Part shown: piece by piece, positions 14,409-52,142 of the stretch
How positions within the stretch are numbered: position 1 is the first letter of the stretch
Layout of the letters: the number at the start of each line of letters is the position of its first letter
NCBI GenBank assembly: GCA_944373095.1
Contig: CALWAK010000002.1
Location: 1-52,142, forward strand
Direction of reading: 5' to 3'
Source: an uncultured Bacilli bacterium
GTDB taxonomy: Bacteria > Bacillota_I > Bacilli_A > RF39 > UBA660
DNA: 52,142 bases
The notes under the pieces: model-generated
The model's input: only the letters and a program-made list of their open reading frames with translations
Database searches by the model: none
Told to the model about the DNA's origin: nothing
Made by a program: the position numbers and the translations under genes

Positions 14409-14996
14409 CTATTTTTCTTTATTACTAATAACTTTTTGATTAAACTTTTCTAAAAATTCTTTTGAAGTAGACCAAGAATCAGTTACATCATCAAAATTAA
14501 CTAGTTTTGATAATGCCATGGCACAAATATACTCATAAGATCCTTGATTAGGACTTTTATATATTATTAAATATAATGGTTTTATTGCGTCGTTTCCCAT
14601 ATTTATAACTTCATTATATTGCTCACTATTTAGTGCATATTCATACCAACCTGCACTTAAATAAAAATTAATATCTTCTTTTTCTTTTTGAGCAATTTCT
14701 GCAGTTAAAGATTGTAATAGTGTTGAAATTTTTTCTAAATCTTTAGTATCTACATTTTGAAATAATAATTCTTCATTTACCCCATCTTTTGTTATTTCAT
14801 CCCATTCTATATATTCTTGATTTTTGTCATTATTTATTGTATCAACTGGATTAGAACTAGTATTTTCAATAATAAATTTAAAGGATTTTCTATTTATAAC
14901 TCCAGTTTCAATCAATTTATAGACAGCAATTATTCCAATAATTATGATTAATAATATAATTAAAATTCTAAATATTTTTTTCTTCTTATTTTTCAT
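14409..14996 (-). CDS. Hypothetical membrane-anchored protein
   Basis: N-terminal TM helix FRILIILLIIIIGIIAVY followed by an acidic extracytoplasmic domain. No motif recognised. Confidence 0.5.
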   Translation of the reverse strand: MKNKKKKIFRILIILLIIIIGIIAVYKLIETGVINRKSFKFIIENTSSNPVDTINNDKNQEYIEWDEITKDGVNEELLFQNVDTKDLEKISTLLQSLTAEIAQKEKEDINFYLSAGWYEYALNSEQYNEVINMGNDAIKPLYLIIYKSPNQGSYEYICAMALSKLVNFDDVTDSWSTSKEFLEKFNQKVISNKEK

Positions 14997-15048
14997 ATGA
15001 CCATTACTTTAACCTTTCACTTTATAATTTAATTATGGCAATAAATTA

Positions 15049-15237
15049 CTATTTATTTTTTTCTTTTTTAAATTTTTCATAAACTGCTAATTGAGAAAAA
15101 ATTGCACAAAATAAACTTGGAATTACAGTATATCCGGCATTAACTTGTCCTTTATTAAATAATACATACCCTGCACCTATAAAAGTCATAAACATAAATA
15201 CAAGTGTTAAAATTCTAAATATTTTTTCTTTATTCAT
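15049..15237 (-). CDS. Small hydrophobic membrane protein (about 62 aa)
   Basis: Two predicted TM helices. Start set at M13 of the track ORF, preceded by GAGG with 8-nt spacing. Confidence 0.4.
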   Translation of the reverse strand: MNKEKIFRILTLVFMFMTFIGAGYVLFNKGQVNAGYTVIPSLFCAIFSQLAVYEKFKKEKNK

Positions 15238-15534
15238 TGTTTTTACCTCTTCATTGTAATTATTATTTATCATTTTAATTTTTGATAAGAATATTATACC
15301 ATTGGATTAATAAATAATCTATATTACCAAAATGTTTGAAATATAATACTGAAATTAAGCTAATTTATTATGTAATGTTCGCAATTTGCGTATTATTCAT
15401 TTCAAATAAAATTATAACTTACAGACTATAAAACACGCTATAATAGCGTTTATACAAAGGAGTTAAAAATATGCTTAAATATAAATTTATAAAACTACAA
15501 CGTTTTAGAAAATTACTTACAGAAAGTTAAAAAA

Positions 15535-16194
15535 CTATAAATTATTCATTATCCATTTAATATCTTCAATAGACTTACTAATATTAAATCTACCGTTTCC
15601 TACAGGATAATAAACTGAATAAAACTTATATTTCTTACCATTTATTTTTCTTTCAAAAAGAGCTTTTCTTACTTTAGAAACATTTATTTTTTCATTTAAT
15701 ACAATTGAACTTACTTGATTACCAAATAGAATAATTACTTTAGGATTAATTATTTCAAATTCTTTTTCTAATAAGTATAAATATTCTTTATAAACCTCAT
15801 CCGGTAATGCTCGTGCATCTATTTGCGTACATTTTCCTAAGTTAGTAATAAAATACTTATGTTCTTCTACATCTTTATAAACTTCTTTGGCAAATTCTTC
15901 AGTCCAATCTTTACCTTTTATAGCTTTAATTTTTTGATAAATATCTTTATCTAACAAATTTAGTTCATAAAATAAATCCCAAGTGTTTTTTGTGCCTATC
16001 CAAGGGGATTTAATTCCCTTCCAATTCTTAGAAGAAGCAATACTTCTTCCAGTGGGATTCATAAATACAAAACATATATTTGGATTATTACTACATCCAC
16101 CATTATAAATTGAATCTAATTCTTTAGCACCATATTTAATTTGTAATTTATCATATTCTTTTTCTAATTCCTTTAAATTCATAAAATTCTCCAT
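15535..16194 (-). CDS. Uracil-DNA glycosylase superfamily protein (MUG/SMUG-like motif A)
   Basis: ICFVFMNPTGRS resembles the G(I/M)NPG motif A. Also VIILFGNQVS and a C-terminal YYPVGNG region. Size and layout fit the UDG fold. Family assignment not verified. Confidence 0.5.
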   Translation of the reverse strand: MENFMNLKELEKEYDKLQIKYGAKELDSIYNGGCSNNPNICFVFMNPTGRSIASSKNWKGIKSPWIGTKNTWDLFYELNLLDKDIYQKIKAIKGKDWTEEFAKEVYKDVEEHKYFITNLGKCTQIDARALPDEVYKEYLYLLEKEFEIINPKVIILFGNQVSSIVLNEKINVSKVRKALFERKINGKKYKFYSVYYPVGNGRFNISKSIEDIKWIMNNL

Positions 16195-16232
16195 AAAGAT
16201 TTTAATAAACTATCATTTCTCTTTTATTAAAA

Positions 16233-17222
16233 TTAATCATTCTTTTTTAATAGCTTTAATACAGCTTGTTTTTCTAATTCAGTCCTAATCTGTTCAAGTT
16301 TTTGATCATTAATATAACGACATTGATTGTATACTTCACATAATTTTACTAAAAATTCTTTTCTAGTATTTTTTAATAAAGCATTAGCACTATTAATTTC
16401 TTGGCCATTATTGTTCCTATCTTCTAAAACCATGCCATTATAAAATATAATAGGAGAATATACCATACCATTAAAGTCACAATTTGCATTATTAATTTCT
16501 ACGCCATCAGTCGCAGTAAATGTACTTTTTTCAGATTTTATACTTTCGGAATTTAAGTGTATTTCTTTTGCTTTTAAATTAGAATTATAAAGTCTTGTTT
16601 CTTCTGATGTTATATTTATCCTAGTTGTTGTTGCATCTCCAAATATACAATTTGTAATATTTAATCTTTTAGCATTTAAACGCATGCCAAAATTTGTATC
16701 ATAAATTTTTGTATATTCATAACTATTTTTGAATTCTTCATTTATAAATGTTAACTCATTGACTCTATTAATATTCATAAAAATATCACTAGCAAAATAA
16801 ATATTAGCCCAATCAATATATTTATTATTTTCAAAAACTATGTTATTACTCCATAATACATTAATTCCTTTGTTAAAAGTACAGTTTTTAAATACAATTG
16901 TCGACCACCACGAAACTAATTCTACCGCTGTATTAAAATTAATACCATCAAATATGTAATATACTGGCTTATCTAAGCCTAATTTTTTAACTTGTTCTTT
17001 TATTCCATCTGTTACTTGATTCATACCATAAAGTTTTAATTCATAAATTGGTTTATTACCTTTATATTTTTCCAGGGATTTTTGATCAACATAACAGATT
17101 ATTCTATCTTTTTCTTCAACTATTCTTCCAATATTAGTTATACTACTTTTTAAATATTCTTGACGTAATTTTTCATAAATTTTTTTTGAAATATATCTTT
17201 TTATTCTATTAGTATTTTCCAT
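16233..17222 (-). CDS. Hypothetical protein with repetitive N-rich beta-strand segments (possible beta-helix) and a C-terminal helical tail
   Basis: Recurrent short segments such as IVFKNCTFNKGINVLWSNNIVFENN, LNITNCIFGD and INITSEETRLYNSNL suggest a parallel beta-helix. No catalytic motif recognised. Confidence 0.45.
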   Translation of the reverse strand: MENTNRIKRYISKKIYEKLRQEYLKSSITNIGRIVEEKDRIICYVDQKSLEKYKGNKPIYELKLYGMNQVTDGIKEQVKKLGLDKPVYYIFDGINFNTAVELVSWWSTIVFKNCTFNKGINVLWSNNIVFENNKYIDWANIYFASDIFMNINRVNELTFINEEFKNSYEYTKIYDTNFGMRLNAKRLNITNCIFGDATTTRINITSEETRLYNSNLKAKEIHLNSESIKSEKSTFTATDGVEINNANCDFNGMVYSPIIFYNGMVLEDRNNNGQEINSANALLKNTRKEFLVKLCEVYNQCRYINDQKLEQIRTELEKQAVLKLLKKND

Positions 17223-17269
17223 TTTTCAGCTCCTTAAAAATTATGAAAACTATTTTAACATTAATTATA

Positions 17270-18033
17270 TTACGATACAATTCTTTTTAATAAGTTACAT
17301 ACTTCACTACTACGCCTATAAACATTACATAACTTTTTTAATTCATCAATTATCACATATTCATCTTTTATTTCATTATAAAATAATGTATTATTACTAG
17401 AAAAATGAACACTTTCTATAGCCTTTTCTTTTGTAAAAATAGAACCAACAACAACATATTTTATGTTATATGATTTTATTAAATCTTTATATAGTGATAT
17501 ATCTTTATAAGTTATATTTTTAAGAACTGACTTTAAATACAAAATAACTGGAAAATACTTACTAAATTTAAAATTTTTAAATCGTAACTCTGGAATATCA
17601 GTATTTTTTTCATAAACACTGTGTTGTGAAATAGAAGCACTACTTACAAATAAGATAAATTGACCATAATATTTTATATGAGAAAATATCTTTTTAATAT
17701 CAAGATAATTTAACATTTTTTAGTCGATACTTGTACTTGATTGCCTTTATCTAAAAAATAATTTATTAATTTAATAGTTTCTTCTTTATTAAATTCATCA
17801 AAGCATTCACAAAAGCAACCAAATGTAATTAAAGTATCTTTATTTATTTGGATATTAGAATTGTTAATCATATTAATTATTTCTTCACATGTTTTAGTAC
17901 TTTTTATTATTTTATTATTAGAATAACCCATTATAGGAAGATAACAATAACTACAATTTCCTAAGCAACCAATATTTGCATTAACAAATAATCTTTTATT
18001 ATCTTTAGCAAATAAATATCCATTATCAATCAT
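17270..18033 (-). pseudogene. SPL (spore photoproduct lyase)-family radical SAM gene split into two ORFs (17710..18033 and 17270..17716) by a frameshift at an A6 run
   Basis: The N-terminal ORF carries GCLGNCSYCYL (CX3CX2C, SplB-like) and ends VQVSTKKC*. The C-terminal ORF continues the SplB-like alignment (LNYLD..., FVSSASISQHSVYEKNTDIPELR). The frames differ by one base at the minus-strand A6 tract (plus-strand T-run 17716-17721). Confidence 0.65.
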
Positions 18034-18109
18034 AAATACTCCTTAAGAATATTATATAATTCTTTAACATTATTAACAATATTTATGATAAAATATAGAT
18101 GGTGATAAT

Positions 18110-18358
18110 ATGAGAGAAGTAAAGCCATATACAATGTATAAACATTTTAAAGGATTTAAAGTTTTAGTCTTAGGAATTGCAAAACATACAGAAACTTTAG
18201 AAGATTTAGTTATATATTACTGTATGCATAGTGATAATAACTCAAATCATACAAATGGGATTTATGCTAGACCACTGGATATGTTTTTATCTGAAGTAGA
18301 TCATGAAAAATATCCAGATGTTAAACAAAAATATCGTTTTGAAGAAATAAAAAAATAA
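18110..18358 (+). CDS. DUF1653-family small protein
   Basis: YKHFKGFKVLVLGIAKHTETLEDLVIYY ... YARPLDMF matches the DUF1653 pattern as remembered. Confidence 0.6.
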   Translation: MREVKPYTMYKHFKGFKVLVLGIAKHTETLEDLVIYYCMHSDNNSNHTNGIYARPLDMFLSEVDHEKYPDVKQKYRFEEIKK

Positions 18359-18372
18359 AATAGATATAATAC

Positions 18373-18846
18373 TTATTTTAAATTATTTAAAATATATTCT
18401 TTGGCTTCATCATAACTTTTATTTAAAGCATAAGCAATTTCATTATATAAATATTTTTCTGCTAAATTAAAGAAAAGTTGATCATTATCGGTCATTTTCT
18501 TTTTATTTTCTGTCCTTATTTTATTACGTAAAAAAGTTGTTTTTATAATTATAACTAATGATTCTATACTACCATCTTGCATTAATCTCTTATATTCTTC
18601 TTCAAGATTTTTACATTCTATCTCAAGAGGGGATAAATATTTTATTTTTTCTATTAACAATTCAATTTCTTTTTCTGTAATTAAATTTCTTAATAATTTA
18701 CTTTCATTACTAACTGGTACATCTATTGTTAAACTACTATCTGTAGTAGATTTTAAAACATAATACTCAAAATTATTAATATTTTTTTTATTAACAATTT
18801 GACAAACATCCCTTTTATATACTACATAATCCTTTATATTATACAT
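18373..18846 (-). CDS. CarD/CdnL-family RNA-polymerase-binding transcription factor
   Basis: MYNIKDYVVYKRDVCQIV ... YYVLKS ... IDVPVSNESKLLRNLITEKE is a CarD_CdnL_TRCF N-domain pattern. Start at M10 of the track ORF, preceded by AGGAGG. Confidence 0.6.
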   Translation of the reverse strand: MYNIKDYVVYKRDVCQIVNKKNINNFEYYVLKSTTDSSLTIDVPVSNESKLLRNLITEKEIELLIEKIKYLSPLEIECKNLEEEYKRLMQDGSIESLVIIIKTTFLRNKIRTENKKKMTDNDQLFFNLAEKYLYNEIAYALNKSYDEAKEYILNNLK

Positions 18847-18960
18847 ATTTAATCCTCCTAAATGTATATCCATTATACTCTTTATTTTTAGATATTTCTA
18901 ACATTTTTATTCTTTTTATCATTATAATATGTTAATATTTATTTAGGATATGGAGGTTAA

Positions 18961-34131: not shown

Positions 34132-35391
34132 CTATTCAATATTTATTATAATTTGATGAGAATTTCCATTAGCATTCTCTTCAAAAGAAACATTTATACC
34201 ATCATTTTTTAGTTTTTCAATTAATCCTTTAATTTCATTCATTGCATTTAGTATTTTTGAATTATCATCTTTGATAACCATTTCATCTATAAGTTGCATA
34301 GGATCAAAATCATTATTTTTCTTCTCAATCTTTTGTTCTTCTTGTTCACTTGGTGAAGTAGTAAAGAATTTATTATTAGGATTTAATTCAATTGGAGAGT
34401 CACCAAAATCTAATGTTTCATACTCTTCAATATTTTTTTTATCTTCTTTTAATTCTTCACCTATTATTTCCATTTCTTTTTTTGGATAAGTTGGAGGTAA
34501 ACTAGTATCTAAAGTTTCATAATTATTTGAAGATTCTATTGTAAAATTTTCAAAATTATTAAAAAATTTATTAGATTGAGGAGCTGGAATATCTTCTATA
34601 GGTGTTGATTCTATAAAACTAGGTTGTTTATCAATTTTTTCACTGCTATAATCAGTTAATACATCCTCTGGCACCATCATTGTAGAAACATTATTTGTTT
34701 TACTACTATTTAAATCAAAGGCATTTTCTTTTATACTTTCTAAATTAGGATTTATATTTACTAAAGGAATGTTTGTTTCTTCATTTTTTTCTCTATATTT
34801 TTTTAATTCTTGATCTAATTGTCTAACAGTTAATCTATTAGTTATTATTTTATTTAACCATTTTACTTGTTCATCATGATTTTCTAAAATCAGTAACGCT
34901 CTTGCATGTCTTTCAGATATTTTTCCTTCCAATAACGCTTGTTGTACTTCATCAGCTAAATTTAATAATCTTAATTTATTAGCAATTGCTGATTGTGATA
35001 TACCCATCTTTTTGGCTAATTTTTCTTGGGTTAAATAGCCTTTATCAAGAAGATTCTTGTAACTTTTAGCTTCCTCAATTGGTGTTAAATCTCTTCTTTG
35101 AATATTTTCTACAAGAGCAACTTCAGCTGACGAATTATCGTCTATATTTGAAATAACAGCAGGTACTGTAGATAACCCAGCCATTTGTGCCGCTTTATAT
35201 CTTCTTTCTCCAGCAATAATTTCATATTTACTCCCTAATTTTCTCAATACCAAAGGCTGAATTATACCATGTTCTTTTATTGACGCTGATAATTCTTTCA
35301 ATCCTTGTTCATCAAACGCTAATCTTGGTTGAAAACGATTAGGTATGATATCATCTATATTAACTTGTAAAACTTGAGATTCCATTTGCAT
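34132..35391 (-). CDS. parB: ParB/Spo0J-family chromosome partitioning protein with an unusually long low-complexity linker
   Basis: IIPNRFQPR, QPLVLRK, IIAGERRYKAAQMAG (CTP-binding GERR box), HTH TQEKLAKKMGISQSAIANKLRLL. Then a roughly 180-aa N/E/K/P/S-rich insert, then a C-terminal block GINVSFEENANGNSHQIIINIE. Confidence 0.88.
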   Translation of the reverse strand: MQMESQVLQVNIDDIIPNRFQPRLAFDEQGLKELSASIKEHGIIQPLVLRKLGSKYEIIAGERRYKAAQMAGLSTVPAVISNIDDNSSAEVALVENIQRRDLTPIEEAKSYKNLLDKGYLTQEKLAKKMGISQSAIANKLRLLNLADEVQQALLEGKISERHARALLILENHDEQVKWLNKIITNRLTVRQLDQELKKYREKNEETNIPLVNINPNLESIKENAFDLNSSKTNNVSTMMVPEDVLTDYSSEKIDKQPSFIESTPIEDIPAPQSNKFFNNFENFTIESSNNYETLDTSLPPTYPKKEMEIIGEELKEDKKNIEEYETLDFGDSPIELNPNNKFFTTSPSEQEEQKIEKKNNDFDPMQLIDEMVIKDDNSKILNAMNEIKGLIEKLKNDGINVSFEENANGNSHQIIINIE

Positions 35392-41654: not shown

Positions 41655-42090
41655 TGTTGATAACTGTGGATAACTTTAATTTTTAGCAAAAATATGGGAA
41701 AATTGGAGTATCTAAACCTGTGCATAACTTGTGATTTATCCACAGGCACTGTTGACAAATATGTTGATATTTAAAAAAAAATGATAAAAATATGAAAAAA
41801 AATAGAAAAAAATGTTAAAAAACTGTGGATAACTTTAATAAAAAAATGATATTTTTGTAGTTATCCACAGATTTATCCACAGTTTTTACTATAAAATTTG
41901 GCTAATATATCGAAAAAAAGAAAGTTATCCACAGTTATCAACAATAACGCAAACTGTGAATATCTTTAGTTATCCACATGTTTATAATTTTTTTATTATA
42001 ATTCTGTGGATAACTTTAAAATTTGGCTTATATATGTCAAAAAAATTGTGGATAACCCTGTGGATAACCTGTGGATAAAATTGTGGATAA
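41655..42090. other. oriC: Chromosomal replication origin oriC (DnaA-box cluster upstream of dnaA)
   Basis: 12 perfect TTATCCACA boxes. Forward at 41736, 41861, 41873, 41925, 41970. Reverse (TGTGGATAA) at 41665, 41824, 42005, 42047, 42059, 42070, 42082. One-mismatch boxes at 41655, 41719, 41935. A-tract-rich segment at 41760-41822. Located between rpmH and dnaA, with gene orientation diverging on either side. Confidence 0.95.
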
Positions 42091-44709: not shown

Positions 44710-44725
44710 GAATAATATTTGTTTT

Positions 44726-44756
44726 TTCGACAAATTTCAACAAAATTCGACAAAAA
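44726..44756 (+). repeat. Three tandem 10-bp direct repeats upstream of comK (candidate regulator binding site)
   Basis: TTCGACAAAT (44726-44735), TTCAACAAAA (44736-44745), TTCGACAAAAA (44746-56). An extended -10 TGATATATT follows at 44772-44780. Confidence 0.5.
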
Positions 44757-44802
44757 TTTTTGTTATATTTTTGATATATTCATTAAAGAAGGGGGAATTG
44801 GA

Positions 44803-45315
44803 ATGAATTATTTAATGAATGATATAGATGATATTTTAGAAGAGTATGAGATTAATGAGGATACATTAGCATTACTTCCAAACAGTAAATTTGAAACTAC
44901 TGTTTTAGAGAAAACAAGAGTCTTAAAAGTTAGAGATGATGCAACTAGTATCATGAAAAATAGTTGTGAATATTTTGGAAGCAGCTTAAGTGGAAGACAG
45001 AGAGGTACTACTGCACTAATTGGTGTAACACATAAAGTACCGGTTATTGTAGAAGAAAGTAGAGAACTAATATTTTTTCCTACTAATTCTCCAAGATTAG
45101 GAATATGTAGTTGGTTATCTTTTAATAATATTAAAAATTATAGAAAAGATGAAAATGGTTATGGAACAATAATAGAGTTTAAATCAGGAAAAGAAGTAAA
45201 TATTCCTTTGTCTTATGGTTCTTTAGATAATCAAATATTACGCTCTGCTAAATTAAATCTAATGTTAAAAGATAGAAAAATAAATCAGAAAAATGATATT
45301 TTATCTAAATTTTAA
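44803..45315 (+). CDS. comK: ComK-family competence transcription factor
   Basis: Aligns by eye along its length with B. subtilis ComK as recalled from memory: YEINEDTLALLP, CEYFGSSLSGRQRGT, THKVPVIVEESRELIFFPTNSP, IPLSYGSLDNQILRSAKL. Start at M29 of the track ORF, preceded by AGAAGGGGG. Confidence 0.8.
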   Translation: MNYLMNDIDDILEEYEINEDTLALLPNSKFETTVLEKTRVLKVRDDATSIMKNSCEYFGSSLSGRQRGTTALIGVTHKVPVIVEESRELIFFPTNSPRLGICSWLSFNNIKNYRKDENGYGTIIEFKSGKEVNIPLSYGSLDNQILRSAKLNLMLKDRKINQKNDILSKF

Positions 45316-48495: not shown

Positions 48496-50925
48496 ATGGA
48501 TAATATTAAAGGAAGAAATATAGTTGATGAAATGAAAAAATCTTTTATGAGGTATTCAATGAGTGTTATAGTATCACGAGCATTACCTGATTTAAGAGAT
48601 GGTTTGAAACCAGTTCATAGAAGAATTTTATATACAATGTTAGAAGATAGTTTAACTCCAGATAAGCCATATAGAAAAAGTGCGTCAACAGTTGGTTCTG
48701 TTTTGGCTAGATACCATCCACATGGTGATACATCTGTTTATGATGCGCTTGTAAGATTAGCGCAGGATTTTAGTTACCGTTATATGTTAGTAGATGGTCA
48801 TGGAAATTTTGGTAGTATAGATGGTGATGGCCCAGCTGCATATCGTTATACTGAGGCGCGTTTATCTAAAATATCTTTAGAATTATTAAGGGATATTAAT
48901 AAAAATGTAATAGATTTTGATGATAATTTTGATGAAACTAGAAAAGAACCTAAGGTATTACCAAGTAGATTTCCAAATATTTTAGTAAATGGTACTATGG
49001 GAATTGCTGTAGGTATGGCAACGAATATTCCTCCTCATAACTTGGGAGAAGTCATTGATGGTTGTGTTGCTTATATAGATAATCAGGATATTACAATAGA
49101 AGAGTTAATGAAGTATATAAAAGGTCCAGATTTTCCAACTGGAGCATCTATTTTAGGAAATAAAGGGATTAAGCAAGCTTATGAAACTGGGCGTGGAACT
49201 GTTACCATTAGATCTCATGCGGAGATTCAAGAAAATAATGGCAAACAGCAAATTGTTTTTACAGATATTCCATATCAAGTAAATAAGGGGGATATAAAAA
49301 GAAAGATTGCTGAATTAGCAAGGGATAAAATAATTGACGGAATTGTTGATTTGCATGATGAAACGTCTTTAAAAAATGGTACACGAATAGTGGTTCATTT
49401 AAAAAAAGATGCAAATGCAAATGTTATATTAAATAATTTATATAAACATACATCATTACAAACTACTTTTGGTATAAATTTTTTAATGTTAGATCAACAA
49501 AAACCTAGAACACTTAATTTATATGAAATTATTTCAAAATATATTGATTTTCAAAGAGAAGTTATATATCGTCGTACAAAATTTGATTTAGATAAAGCAG
49601 AAAGAAGAGTTCATATTTTAGAGGGCTATAAAATAGCTTTAGATAACTTAGATGAGGTTATTAAAATAATAAGAAATGCTGAAACTGATGTTGAAGCAAA
49701 AACAAAGTTATCACAAAATTTTGGTTTAGATGAAGTTCAAGCTGATGCTATACTTGAGTTGAAGTTACGTAGATTAACCGGTTTAGAAAGATCAAAAATT
49801 GAAGAAGAGTTAAACGAGCTATTAAAAGAAATTTCTAATTTAAAAGAAATACTATCGAGTGATAGGAAAATTTATGAAATTATTAAAAAGGAATTACTAG
49901 AAATTAAATCTAAATATGGCGATGAGCGAAGAACTGATATTGATATGACTGCTATTGATTATATAGAAGACGAATCATTAATTCCAAATGAAGAAATTAT
50001 TATTGCATTAACTAATAAAGGTTATATCAAGAGAACCACTTCAGATACATTTAAGAGTCAAAATCGTGGTGGGGTTGGTGTTAAAGGCATGACAATGAAT
50101 GATGATGATTTTGTTGAACATTTAATTACTTTGTCTACCCATGATTATGTGTTATTTTTTACAAATAAAGGAAAAGTTTATCGTTTAAAAGGCTATGAAG
50201 TTCCAGAATTTGGCCGCCAATCTAAAGGAATTCCAATTATTAACTTATTACAAATTGAGAAAGATGAAATGGTTAATAGTGTTATAAAAATTTGCAAAGA
50301 TGATGAAAATACATATTTACTTTTTGCTACTAAAAATGGACTTGTAAAGAAAACTAGTATTAGTGAATTTGAAAATATTAGGCAAAATGGAAAAATAAGT
50401 ATAACCTTAAAAGAAAATGATGAGCTTATTTCTGTAAGAAAAACGACTGGTAATAATGAAATTTTATTGGCTGCAAGCAATGGTAATATGGTCCGTTTCA
50501 ATGAAAAAGAAATTAGAGAAATGGGAAGAACAGCTTCAGGGGTTAAAGGAATTAAATTGCATAATGACTCATTTTGTATTGGTGCAGAAGTTGTAAATGA
50601 TGATGATTCCATTTTAATTGTTACTGAAAACGGATATGGCAAGCAAACAAATGTTCGCATGTTTAGAGAAACTAAACGTGGGTCAAAAGGCGTAAAAGCT
50701 TTAAATATAACTGAAAAAAATGGTAATCTTAAAGCGTTTAAGTTAGTTATACCTGATAATGATCTTATTATAATAACAGACTTTGGAACTATAATGAGAA
50801 TGCCATTAAATCAAGTTTCTAATTTAGGTAGAGCTACTCAAGGTCTAAGATTAATAAATTTAAAAGATTCACAAAAAGTTTCAACAATATCTTTAATAAA
50901 TTCAATTGTTAATGATAATGAATAA
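48496..50925 (+). CDS. gyrA: DNA gyrase subunit A
   Basis: [37 protein letters not shown] (QRDR), [10 protein letters not shown] (active-site Tyr), C-terminal beta-pinwheel repeats. ATG at 48496 follows AGGAGG; the track starts at GTG 48487. Confidence 0.97.
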
Positions 50926-51652
50926 CAATGTTTCACGTGAAACATTGTTTTTTAATATTAATAAATTAAAAAAAATTAAATTTTTATGGAAATATTTTTA
51001 ATACTAATAAATTTTTAAATCTTAATATGTTTTACGTAAAACATATTAAGATTAATAACTATTATATTTATAAATTAAGTATTTCTTTTTTTAAAAATAT
51101 TTATATAAATATACATAATGTTTCACGTGAAACATTGTGTATATATTGTTTAAATTTCAACAATTTAAAATAAAAGAACTTATATATAATTTAATCATTA
51201 AATAACACTAAATATAGTAATGTTTCACGTGAAACATTACTGGCAAATATTTAAGCTGTATAGTTATATCTAAATATATTGCATAAAATGTTAATTATGC
51301 TTATGTTTCACGTGAAACATAGGTTGTTTCTTGATATTTAATTATTAATATTAACAAAATTTTATTTAATAGATTTATTATTATATTTACAATATTAATG
51401 TTTCACGTGAAACATTAATATTAAATTACTACAAATAAATATTAGTTTTTAACAAAGATATTTAAAATTTTCTAATTATATTTTTCTATAATTTTTTCTT
51501 TATATATAATTTTTATAACTAATATTATAACAATGTTTCACGTGAAACGTTGTTATAATATTAAATTTATAAATGTTTTATTATTGCATTATTAAATTTA
51601 ACTAAAATAATTATAATATATTATAAATATATAGATGTTTCACGTGAAACAT
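50924..51652. repeat. parS: Array of eight parS-type palindromes (ParB binding sites) in non-coding DNA
   Basis: ATGTTTCACGTGAAACAT at 50928-50945, 51118-51135, 51220-51237, 51303-51320, 51398-51415 and 51635-51652. ATGTTTCACGTGAAACGT at 51533-51550. Symmetric variant ATGTTTTACGTAAAACAT at 51027-51044. The inner 16-mer equals the parS consensus TGTTNCACGTGAAACA. Copy 1 overlaps the gyrA stop codon and is followed by a T-run, so it also looks like the gyrA terminator. Confidence 0.85.
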
Positions 51653-51685
51653 GTTTAAGTTGAACAAATGTTCGTTCAAAAAACA

Positions 51686-51714
51686 TTGAAATATTATTTT
51701 TTTTATGTTAATAT
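51686..51714 (+). promoter_or_regulatory. Sigma-A-type promoter for the SRP RNA gene
   Basis: TTGAAA (51686-51691), 17-nt spacer ending TGT, TAATAT (51709-51714). This places the transcription start about 7 nt downstream, at the first base of the SRP RNA helix. Confidence 0.55.
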
Positions 51715-51721
51715 AATTTCT

Positions 51722-51792
51722 GTGCAACAAGTAAATAAGAAACTGGTCAGAACAGGAATGTAGCAGCCATAATTATCAATGCTTGTGTGCAC
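51722..51792 (+). ncRNA. ffs: Small (4.5S-like) signal recognition particle RNA
   Basis: GGTCAGAACA-GGAA-TGTAGCAGCC matches the conserved SRP domain IV (E. coli GGUCAGGUCC-GGAA-GGAAGCAGCC) with a GGAA tetraloop. The terminal helix GTGCAACAAG / CTTGTGTGCAC closes the molecule and is followed by TTTTTTT. Confidence 0.75.
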
Positions 51793-51809
51793 TTTTTTTA
51801 GGTGTATTT

Positions 51810-52142
51810 ATGGAAGAATATATTGAATTTTTATATACTTTAGCAAAAAAAGCATTAAGAAATGGTGACATTCCTGTTAGCGCGATTATTATCTTTAATG
51901 GCAAAATAATTGGTAAAGGATACAATACCAGACATAAAACTAATAAAGTAATTGGTCATGCGGAAATAAATGCAATAATTAATGCCGAAAAAAAAATGAA
52001 AGATTTTCGTTTAAATGAATGTTTTTTAATAACAACTTTAAAACCATGCGATATGTGTTTGGAAGTTATTAAAGCAGCTAGAATTTCTAAAGTATATTAT
52101 ATTTTAGAAAGTCATGAAAAGAGCGAAATTCAGCGTAAAATT
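51810..52142 (+). CDS. tadA: tRNA-specific adenosine deaminase TadA (CDA-fold); 3' end runs off the window
   Basis: Hand translation gives MEEYIEFLYTLAKKALRNGDIPVSAIIIFNGKIIGKGYN ... GHAEINAI ... LKPCDMC, i.e. the H(A)E ... PCxxC zinc motifs. Open to the window end. Confidence 0.85.
   Translation, partial: MEEYIEFLYTLAKKALRNGDIPVSAIIIFNGKIIGKGYNTRHKTNKVIGHAEINAIINAEKKMKDFRLNECFLITTLKPCDMCLEVIKAARISKVYYILESHEKSEIQRKI

Follow-up and report, generated by a model that had tools for sequence, protein, structure and literature searches.

A dense array of canonical parS sites downstream of gyrA in the origin region of an uncultured gut Bacilli bacterium

Eight parS sites occupy the gap between gyrA and ffs

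The DNA analysed here, a stretch of 52,142 bp referred to as the window, is the entire contig CALWAK010000002.1 (assembly GCA_944373095.1) of an uncultured, spore-forming Bacillota of roughly 24% G+C content (GC) from a gut metagenome. Its 0.73-kb gap between gyrA and ffs, the gene for the small signal recognition particle (SRP) RNA, holds an array of eight sites of the parS type, the recognition motif of ParB/Spo0J proteins. A mismatch-tolerant search of the window for the 16-mer TGTTTCACGTGAAACA returned six exact copies, one copy with a single mismatch and one with two, all at 50929-51651, and these eight are the sole matches at up to three mismatches. In 100 dinucleotide shuffles the mean number of matches was 0.15 and the maximum two. 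Another scaffold from this organism (L122) runs 8.8 kb to the right of the window, so that about 61 kb of this genome are covered overall; the extension has no further site at up to two mismatches. The density in the gap is about 11 sites per kb. The individual sites are as follows.

50929..50944: parS site 1, exact; inside a 26-bp perfect palindrome (50924-50949)
51028..51043: parS site 2, variant TGTTTTACGTAAAACA with two mismatches (symmetric C>T/G>A); centre of a 36-bp perfect palindrome (51018-51053)
51119..51134: parS site 3, exact; inside a 36-bp palindrome (51109-51144) with one T:G position
51221..51236: parS site 4, exact; inside a 26-bp palindrome (51216-51241)
51304..51319: parS site 5, exact; arms of 2 bp only, or 5 bp if T:G is allowed
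51399..51414: parS site 6, exact; inside a 32-bp perfect palindrome (51391-51422)
51534..51549: parS site 7, one mismatch (terminal A>G); centre of a 44-bp palindrome (51520-51563) with a T:G as its sole imperfection
51636..51651: parS site 8, exact; no extended arms; about 60 bp upstream of ffs

The sites are 16-bp inverted repeats matching the parS consensus TGTTNCACGTGAAACA. The motif of the ParB paralogue Noc, the Noc-binding site (NBS, TATTTCCCGGGAAATA), has A and C as the first and sixth bases of each half-site (PMC7383237). Every site in the array has G and A at these two positions, and no NBS at up to two mismatches was found in the window.

The original prediction, made from the letters of the window, had listed eight 18-bp palindromes, which begin one base before the 16-mers, and had recognised in them the canonical parS motif, with no other copy in the 52 kb. 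The search bears out all of this, including the start-to-start spacings of 99, 91, 102, 83, 95, 135 and 102 bp. The description of the array as tandem and regularly spaced is not supported. Tandem Repeats Finder reported no repeat unit across the sites, and the spacers are unique and unrelated to each other. Direct-repeat families in the array align over the palindrome only, with flanks 61–79% identical, which is the level of the AT-rich background. Helical phasing is absent, as division of the spacings by 10.5 leaves fractions from 0.05 to 0.90.

The array is bordered by core genes and lies close to the replication origin:

48496..50925, + strand: gyrA (Pfam; the exact protein is present on a European Nucleotide Archive (ENA) scaffold); conserved left border of the array throughout the clade
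51711..51806, + strand: ffs, small SRP RNA (Rfam RF00169, 53.8 bits); right border of the array
51812 to contig end: tadA-like deaminase open reading frame (ORF); in relatives this place is taken by a dCMP_cyt_deam_1 gene
41665-42090: oriC DnaA-box cluster, upstream of dnaA
42108-43550: dnaA (Pfam)

From the gyrA stop codon (50923-50925) to the next ORF there is no ORF of 80 or more amino acids, and the GC is 0.19 across 51001-52000, in agreement with the prediction of an ORF-free, AT-rich and otherwise unique stretch. The origin has 14 perfect copies of the TTATCCACA box spread over about 430 bp. The array starts about 8.9 kb from this cluster, against a predicted distance of about 9 kb, and is thus origin-proximal. 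The origin itself is unusually rich in boxes, four of the 14 TTATCCACA copies falling within 44 bp (42047-42090). A ComK-family gene (44719-45315, + strand) sits between dnaN and recF, a position conserved in the origin regions of the clade.

Motif and location are conserved while the remainder of the array turns over

GyrA homologues at 75–77% identity (L124-L129), selected without reference to parS, were used to examine the gap in relatives. Each of these loci has five or six exact parS in the gap between gyrA and tadA and none elsewhere in the 22 kb spanning oriC. The loci share the gene order mnmE...rpmH / dnaA-dnaN-comK-recF-gyrB-gyrA-gap-tadA-dnaX-ybaB-recR. The synteny comparison that the original prediction had proposed for the gyrA-ffs/tadA gap accordingly returned conservation of both array and gene order.

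A wider set of relatives was obtained from pattern scans. In 71 distinct loci from uncultured low-GC gut Bacilli (GyrA 55–79% identical), the array is located just downstream of gyrA; the first parS typically lies some tens to about 120 nt beyond the end of the GyrA alignment, and each locus has 1–11 sites within 2.5 kb. Throughout the clade the parS 16-mer is kept exact while spacers, copy number and spacing turn over, the latter ranging over about 40–300 bp with no single period or preferred value. The combination of an exact motif, a fixed location and turnover of everything else is typical of selection on a protein-binding motif and its place, and not of a repeat family; it agrees with a protein-binding centromere and not with REP (repetitive extragenic palindromic) elements or tandem duplication.

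Several loci record changes in copy number or position. Between the near-identical strains L124 and L125/L126 (12622-12690), a 53-bp indel corresponds to one parS unit gained or lost, making copy number polymorphic. At L121:2726-3276 a true tandem repeat is present, with six copies of a 106–109 bp unit and one parS in each, which indicates that arrays can grow by unit duplication. The closest relative for which a contig could be used has one exact parS within the coding sequence of gyrA, at its 3′ end (L123:12412-12427), and its contig breaks within the array.

The conserved setting also bears on the idea that an integrated plasmid or phage left the array behind as its former centromere. The density of sites does resemble that of iteron-type plasmid centromeres, an analogy drawn in the original prediction. 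The flanks, however, are the core genes gyrA, ffs, tadA and dnaX in an order conserved clade-wide, and neither a par operon nor an integrase or other mobile-element gene is adjacent. Moreover, the motif is the chromosomal parS consensus and direct-repeat units are missing. Such an origin is highly improbable.

Palindromic arms and a putative gyrA terminator

Many of the sites are embedded in palindromes longer than parS. Five of the eight lie in perfect or near-perfect palindromes of 26–44 bp with arms specific to each copy, whereas 3.6% are expected when flanks are swapped between sites, a significant excess; clade-wide, extended palindromes occur at 31% of sites, compared with 2% in the swapped-flank control. 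The site 2 variant retains perfect symmetry over 36 bp. Most imperfections in the arms are T:G on the + strand, the strand that carries the gyrA sense sequence and also serves as lagging-strand template. Folded as RNA, seven of the eight hairpins are much more stable than shuffled sequences (z from -3.3 to -8.5), the strongest being site 7 at -23 kcal/mol (z = -8.5). A terminator scan of the array gave five terminator-like matches against 0.0 expected.

Site 1 stands out among these hairpins. Its palindrome (50924-50949) starts on the final base of the stop codon of gyrA, with TTTTTT coming after it; it was flagged by the terminator scan, and its RNA fold has -13.6 kcal/mol (z = -3.9). It looks like the hairpin of a putative intrinsic terminator of gyrA. 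The full set of Rho-independent terminator features is found at site 1 alone; sites 3 and 5 are weaker matches and the others have no T-run. A general role of the first site as gyrA terminator was considered for the clade and rejected, as a T-rich tail follows the first site in only about 24% of loci.

An alternative view is that the palindromes act mainly as nucleic-acid structures, be it RNA hairpins or terminators that insulate gyrA from ffs, REP-like elements or cruciforms, with the match to parS being secondary. The copy-specific long palindromes, the stable folds, the excess of terminator-like matches and the T:G bias all speak for this view. Against it, what stays invariant in all 71 loci coincides exactly with the 16-bp ParB consensus, and the arms are idiosyncratic. 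A proper T-run is confined to site 1. Among three near-identical strains, one arm extension shrinks stepwise (11, 8 and 6 bp) with no compensatory change, and several relatives (L077, L079 and L121, for example) show little extension. Finally, and unlike REP elements, the palindrome has no copy outside the gap in the 61 kb of this genome or in the 22-kb windows of the relatives. A primarily structural role is quite unlikely on this evidence.

Arm decay without compensation, together with the limited extension in relatives, makes us lean to a mutational by-product over selection on the palindromes. A mutational origin is no less likely than selection, and a candidate mechanism would be hairpin-templated, quasi-palindrome correction around the perfect 18-bp core, acting on the template of the lagging strand.

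A probable origin-proximal centromere

The gyrA-ffs gap probably serves this low-GC Bacillota genome as its chromosomal centromere, or at the least as the dominant origin-proximal one, and is made up of eight canonical parS sites that would be read by a ParB encoded outside the window. The identity of the motif, its excess over chance and its restriction to one gap, conserved across relatives, point in this direction. The mechanism would follow established ParB biology (PMC10786196, PMC7022226). Each parS would bind one dimer of a canonical Spo0J/ParB-type CTPase; cytidine triphosphate (CTP) would close the ParB clamp, and the dimer would then slide off and free the site for the next round of loading. 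Eight loaders within 0.73 kb would be expected to raise the loading flux and to create a ParB-dense zone over the origin region. This zone could recruit SMC-ScpAB and, if a ParA exists, drive segregation of the origin.

Several results weigh against this interpretation, most of them concerning the missing partner proteins. We ran tblastn with Spo0J, Soj, Noc and Caulobacter ParB queries. No parS-type ParB (R173 ... G201, with G/S/T/C accepted at 201) was seen in the window, in the adjacent 8.8 kb or in seven origin loci of relatives of 12–22 kb; in the window, L122 and L123-L129 the sole match was one Noc-like gene. Nor was a parS-type ParB seen near two further Noc neighbourhoods. For 80 metagenome loci the tblastn output was empty, which we read as no ParB or ParA match, and no ParA/Soj was seen in the same loci. 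The scarcity of T-rich tails at first sites across the clade counts on this side as well. A layout in which these genes are apart has a counterpart in Staphylococcus, which has noc at the origin, parB elsewhere and no known soj.

The centromere reading of the original prediction stands in part. Canonical parS sites conserved in one non-coding gap are retained; a special architecture and the binder it had named are not.

The ParB-family gene next to rsmG is Noc-type

The protein originally proposed to bind the array is encoded by the only ParB-family gene in the window:

34132-35391, - strand: Noc-like gene, 419-aa product, directly after rsmG

It is also the only gene of this family in the approximately 61 kb around oriC, and the same holds for the loci of relatives. 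In B. subtilis, noc, soj and spo0J are adjacent after rsmG, whereas only the noc-like gene is found there in the window. Two divergent Noc-like orthologues share the rsmG-noc-PBP synteny (PBP, penicillin-binding protein) and have no soj or spo0J in their neighbourhoods.

The closest structures in the PDB are Noc chains (7ng0/7nfu, 1.6e-58), ahead of Spo0J (6sdk, 2.7e-51). The best NCBIfam model is likewise Noc (TIGR04285), with 280 bits, which is below the curated cutoff of 315; parB_part reached 187 bits. Specificity of this family is set by four residues, R173-T179-A184-G201 in ParB and Q-K-K-R in Noc (Jalal et al., PMC7383237). The same study found R173 to be invariable among parS-specific variants, and showed that Q173 reads the A and R201 the C by which NBS differs from parS, given K at 179 or 184 (PMC7383237). 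The product of 34132-35391 has Q173, K179, N184 and R201 (Q-K-N-R); these positions were taken from an alignment to the PDB Noc chains and to sequences of Spo0J, Noc and Caulobacter ParB. K179, N or S at 184, and R201 are retained by all 120 of its closest homologues, and Q173 by 119 of the 120, the remaining one having R173.

The protein is nonetheless not a standard Noc. It has the GERRxR CTP-binding motif and no ParA-activating peptide of the Spo0J kind. A roughly 220-aa low-complexity insert precedes a Noc-like C-terminus, an architecture that recurs in the 120 homologues of 400–500 aa. The N-terminal amphipathic membrane-targeting helix, which is needed for Noc function (PMC4331003), is absent: 17 residues precede the NxxQPR motif of the ParB N domain (MQMESQVLQVNIDDIIPNRFQPR), and the reading frame leaves no room for a start further upstream. 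A short N-terminus is shared by 116 of the 120 homologues.

Two motif classes in the origin region

NBS sites are present in the source genome immediately to the right of the window, with one exact copy (L122:10454) and two copies with one mismatch (8068 and 12186). They fall within dnaX, holB and pth, about 1.3–5.4 kb past the window end, and their positions are conserved in relatives; in L124/L125 the NBS are found at 14507-18852. To judge from these sites and from its specificity residues, the 34132-35391 product is probably a Noc orthologue with its own NBS sites and not the binder of the array. Its Noc-type residues, its best matches and the NBS just beyond the window all run counter to the assignment made originally.

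We searched 243 kb of clade DNA with the degenerate palindrome TNTTTCNCGNGAAANA, and every match was either a pure parS or a pure NBS, with no hybrids. Two sharply separated motif classes imply two separate sequence readers. As the Noc-like protein accounts for the NBS, the parS array would need a canonical ParB.

An alternative is that the 34132-35391 protein itself binds the array, either as the sole ParB/Noc-family protein of the cell or with dual specificity for parS and NBS. It is the only ParB-family gene in the 61 kb around oriC, with the same situation in relatives; it possesses the GERRxR motif and, having no membrane helix, is not an ordinary Noc; and dual-specificity variants did arise in the mutational scan (PMC7383237). 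This alternative has to contend with the Q-K-N-R pattern of the homologues, set against the invariable R173 of parS-specific variants (PMC7383237), and with Noc as best match in both PDB and NCBIfam. Exact NBS 16-mers exist in the source genome and in relatives, and hybrid sites are missing, although a relaxed single reader would be expected to tolerate them. We regard binding of the array by this protein as unlikely.

The broader form of the same idea, namely a clade devoid of canonical Spo0J in which a single Noc-type ParB-family protein serves both motifs and uses the gap downstream of gyrA as its loading platform, appears improbable too. The gap may then hold parS alone in the source genome and fixed-distance parS-NBS dyads in many relatives. 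If true, a one-protein, two-motif system acting as centromere and nucleoid organiser would be undescribed.

Such dyads are a separate observation of some interest. In many relatives parS and NBS are juxtaposed 6–14 bp apart downstream of gyrA, often repeated three to seven times (seven pairs in L199, five in L136; further examples are L070:867-1571, L004:2962-3166, L081:549-1559 and L132-L211). A metagenome scan returned 88 dyad stretches, and 51 of the 80 listed adjoin gyrA. Loading sites of two paralogous CTP clamps placed side by side in this way did not turn up in the literature consulted, in which no search was aimed at dyads.

Comparison with known systems

The array consists of the common centromere motif, arranged in a way for which Myxococcus already provides a precedent, and it leaves the understanding of ParABS unchanged. 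It probably marks the centromere and origin region across an extensive group of uncultured low-GC gut Bacilli. Of greater interest are the Noc-like protein without a membrane anchor and the parS-NBS dyads of relatives. Very dense non-coding parS arrays recur across phyla, and they provide natural experiments for asking how ParB-CTP clamp loading and the recruitment of SMC depend on site number and spacing.

The original prediction had likened tight arrays to plasmid and phage centromeres and contrasted them with chromosomes. Chromosomal examples overturn this contrast. Genomes typically have one to four parS, and some species have 20 or more (PMC10786196). In Myxococcus xanthus, 22 parS repeats form a cluster of about 3 kb and bind ParB in vitro (PMC3899335). 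We further scanned one genome per species for two exact parS lying 76–106 bp apart start to start. Paired parS of this kind were found in at least 119 loci from many phyla, a lower bound from which the true frequency of arrays cannot be read; the genome of the window is not among the matches. Among the matches listed (at least 119), 15 loci from several phyla hold at least five parS within 1 kb (5–9 per kb), and in 12 of these 15 all parS fall outside any ORF of 120 aa. ORF-free arrays include eight parS at a period of 46–47 bp in Lachnospiraceae (L041:1014-1353), eight in 434 bp in Paceibacterota (L059:1473-1906), seven in 253 bp in Eubacteriales (L051:7246-7498), six in 461 bp in Treponema (L098:5780-6240) and a very dense array in Clostridia (L045:6491-6655). 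Outside the clade of the window, dense clusters mostly adjoin rsmG and parB where the flanking genes were identified.

The M. xanthus cluster is the closest counterpart. It too is a dense, origin-proximal chromosomal array of near-consensus 16-bp parS, at about 7 sites per kb there and about 11 here, and a multi-site fragment of it binds ParB in vitro and forms a large complex (PMC3899335). The M. xanthus cluster lies about 4 kb upstream of parA, beside a parAB operon with both proteins identified, and has 22 sites. The window array has eight sites between gyrA and ffs, with no parAB within the 61 kb.

The Spo0J/parS system of B. subtilis, from the same phylum, uses the identical 16-bp motif (TGTTNCACGTGAAACA), likewise origin-proximal, and has a Noc paralogue with its own NBS. 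It differs in its layout, commonly described as about 10 singleton sites spread over the origin region and often intragenic (see also PMC7614844, PMC7022226). In Caulobacter crescentus and Corynebacterium glutamicum, clustered parS near oriC nucleate one ParB zone and load SMC (PMC5815017, PMC7083940), much as proposed here. Their clusters span kilobases to tens of kilobases, which is one to two orders of magnitude looser, and are partly intragenic. Plasmid iteron centromeres (sopC of F, 12 x 43 bp, and parC of R1) resemble the array in placing many sites in a short non-coding stretch. They are head-to-tail repeats beside their own par operon and are read by plasmid-specific proteins, whereas the window has unique spacers, the chromosomal consensus and no adjacent par operon.

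Streptococcus pneumoniae has four dispersed parS and a known parB, and lacks parA (PMC7022226). The window is similar in that no ParA was seen near the origin, which would make SMC loading, and not ParA-driven transport, the likely main role of the array; it departs from S. pneumoniae in that its ParB was not seen and its sites are arrayed. Taken as a whole, the array in the window is a further example of a known and widespread arrangement, and the part that is specific to its clade is the position after gyrA.

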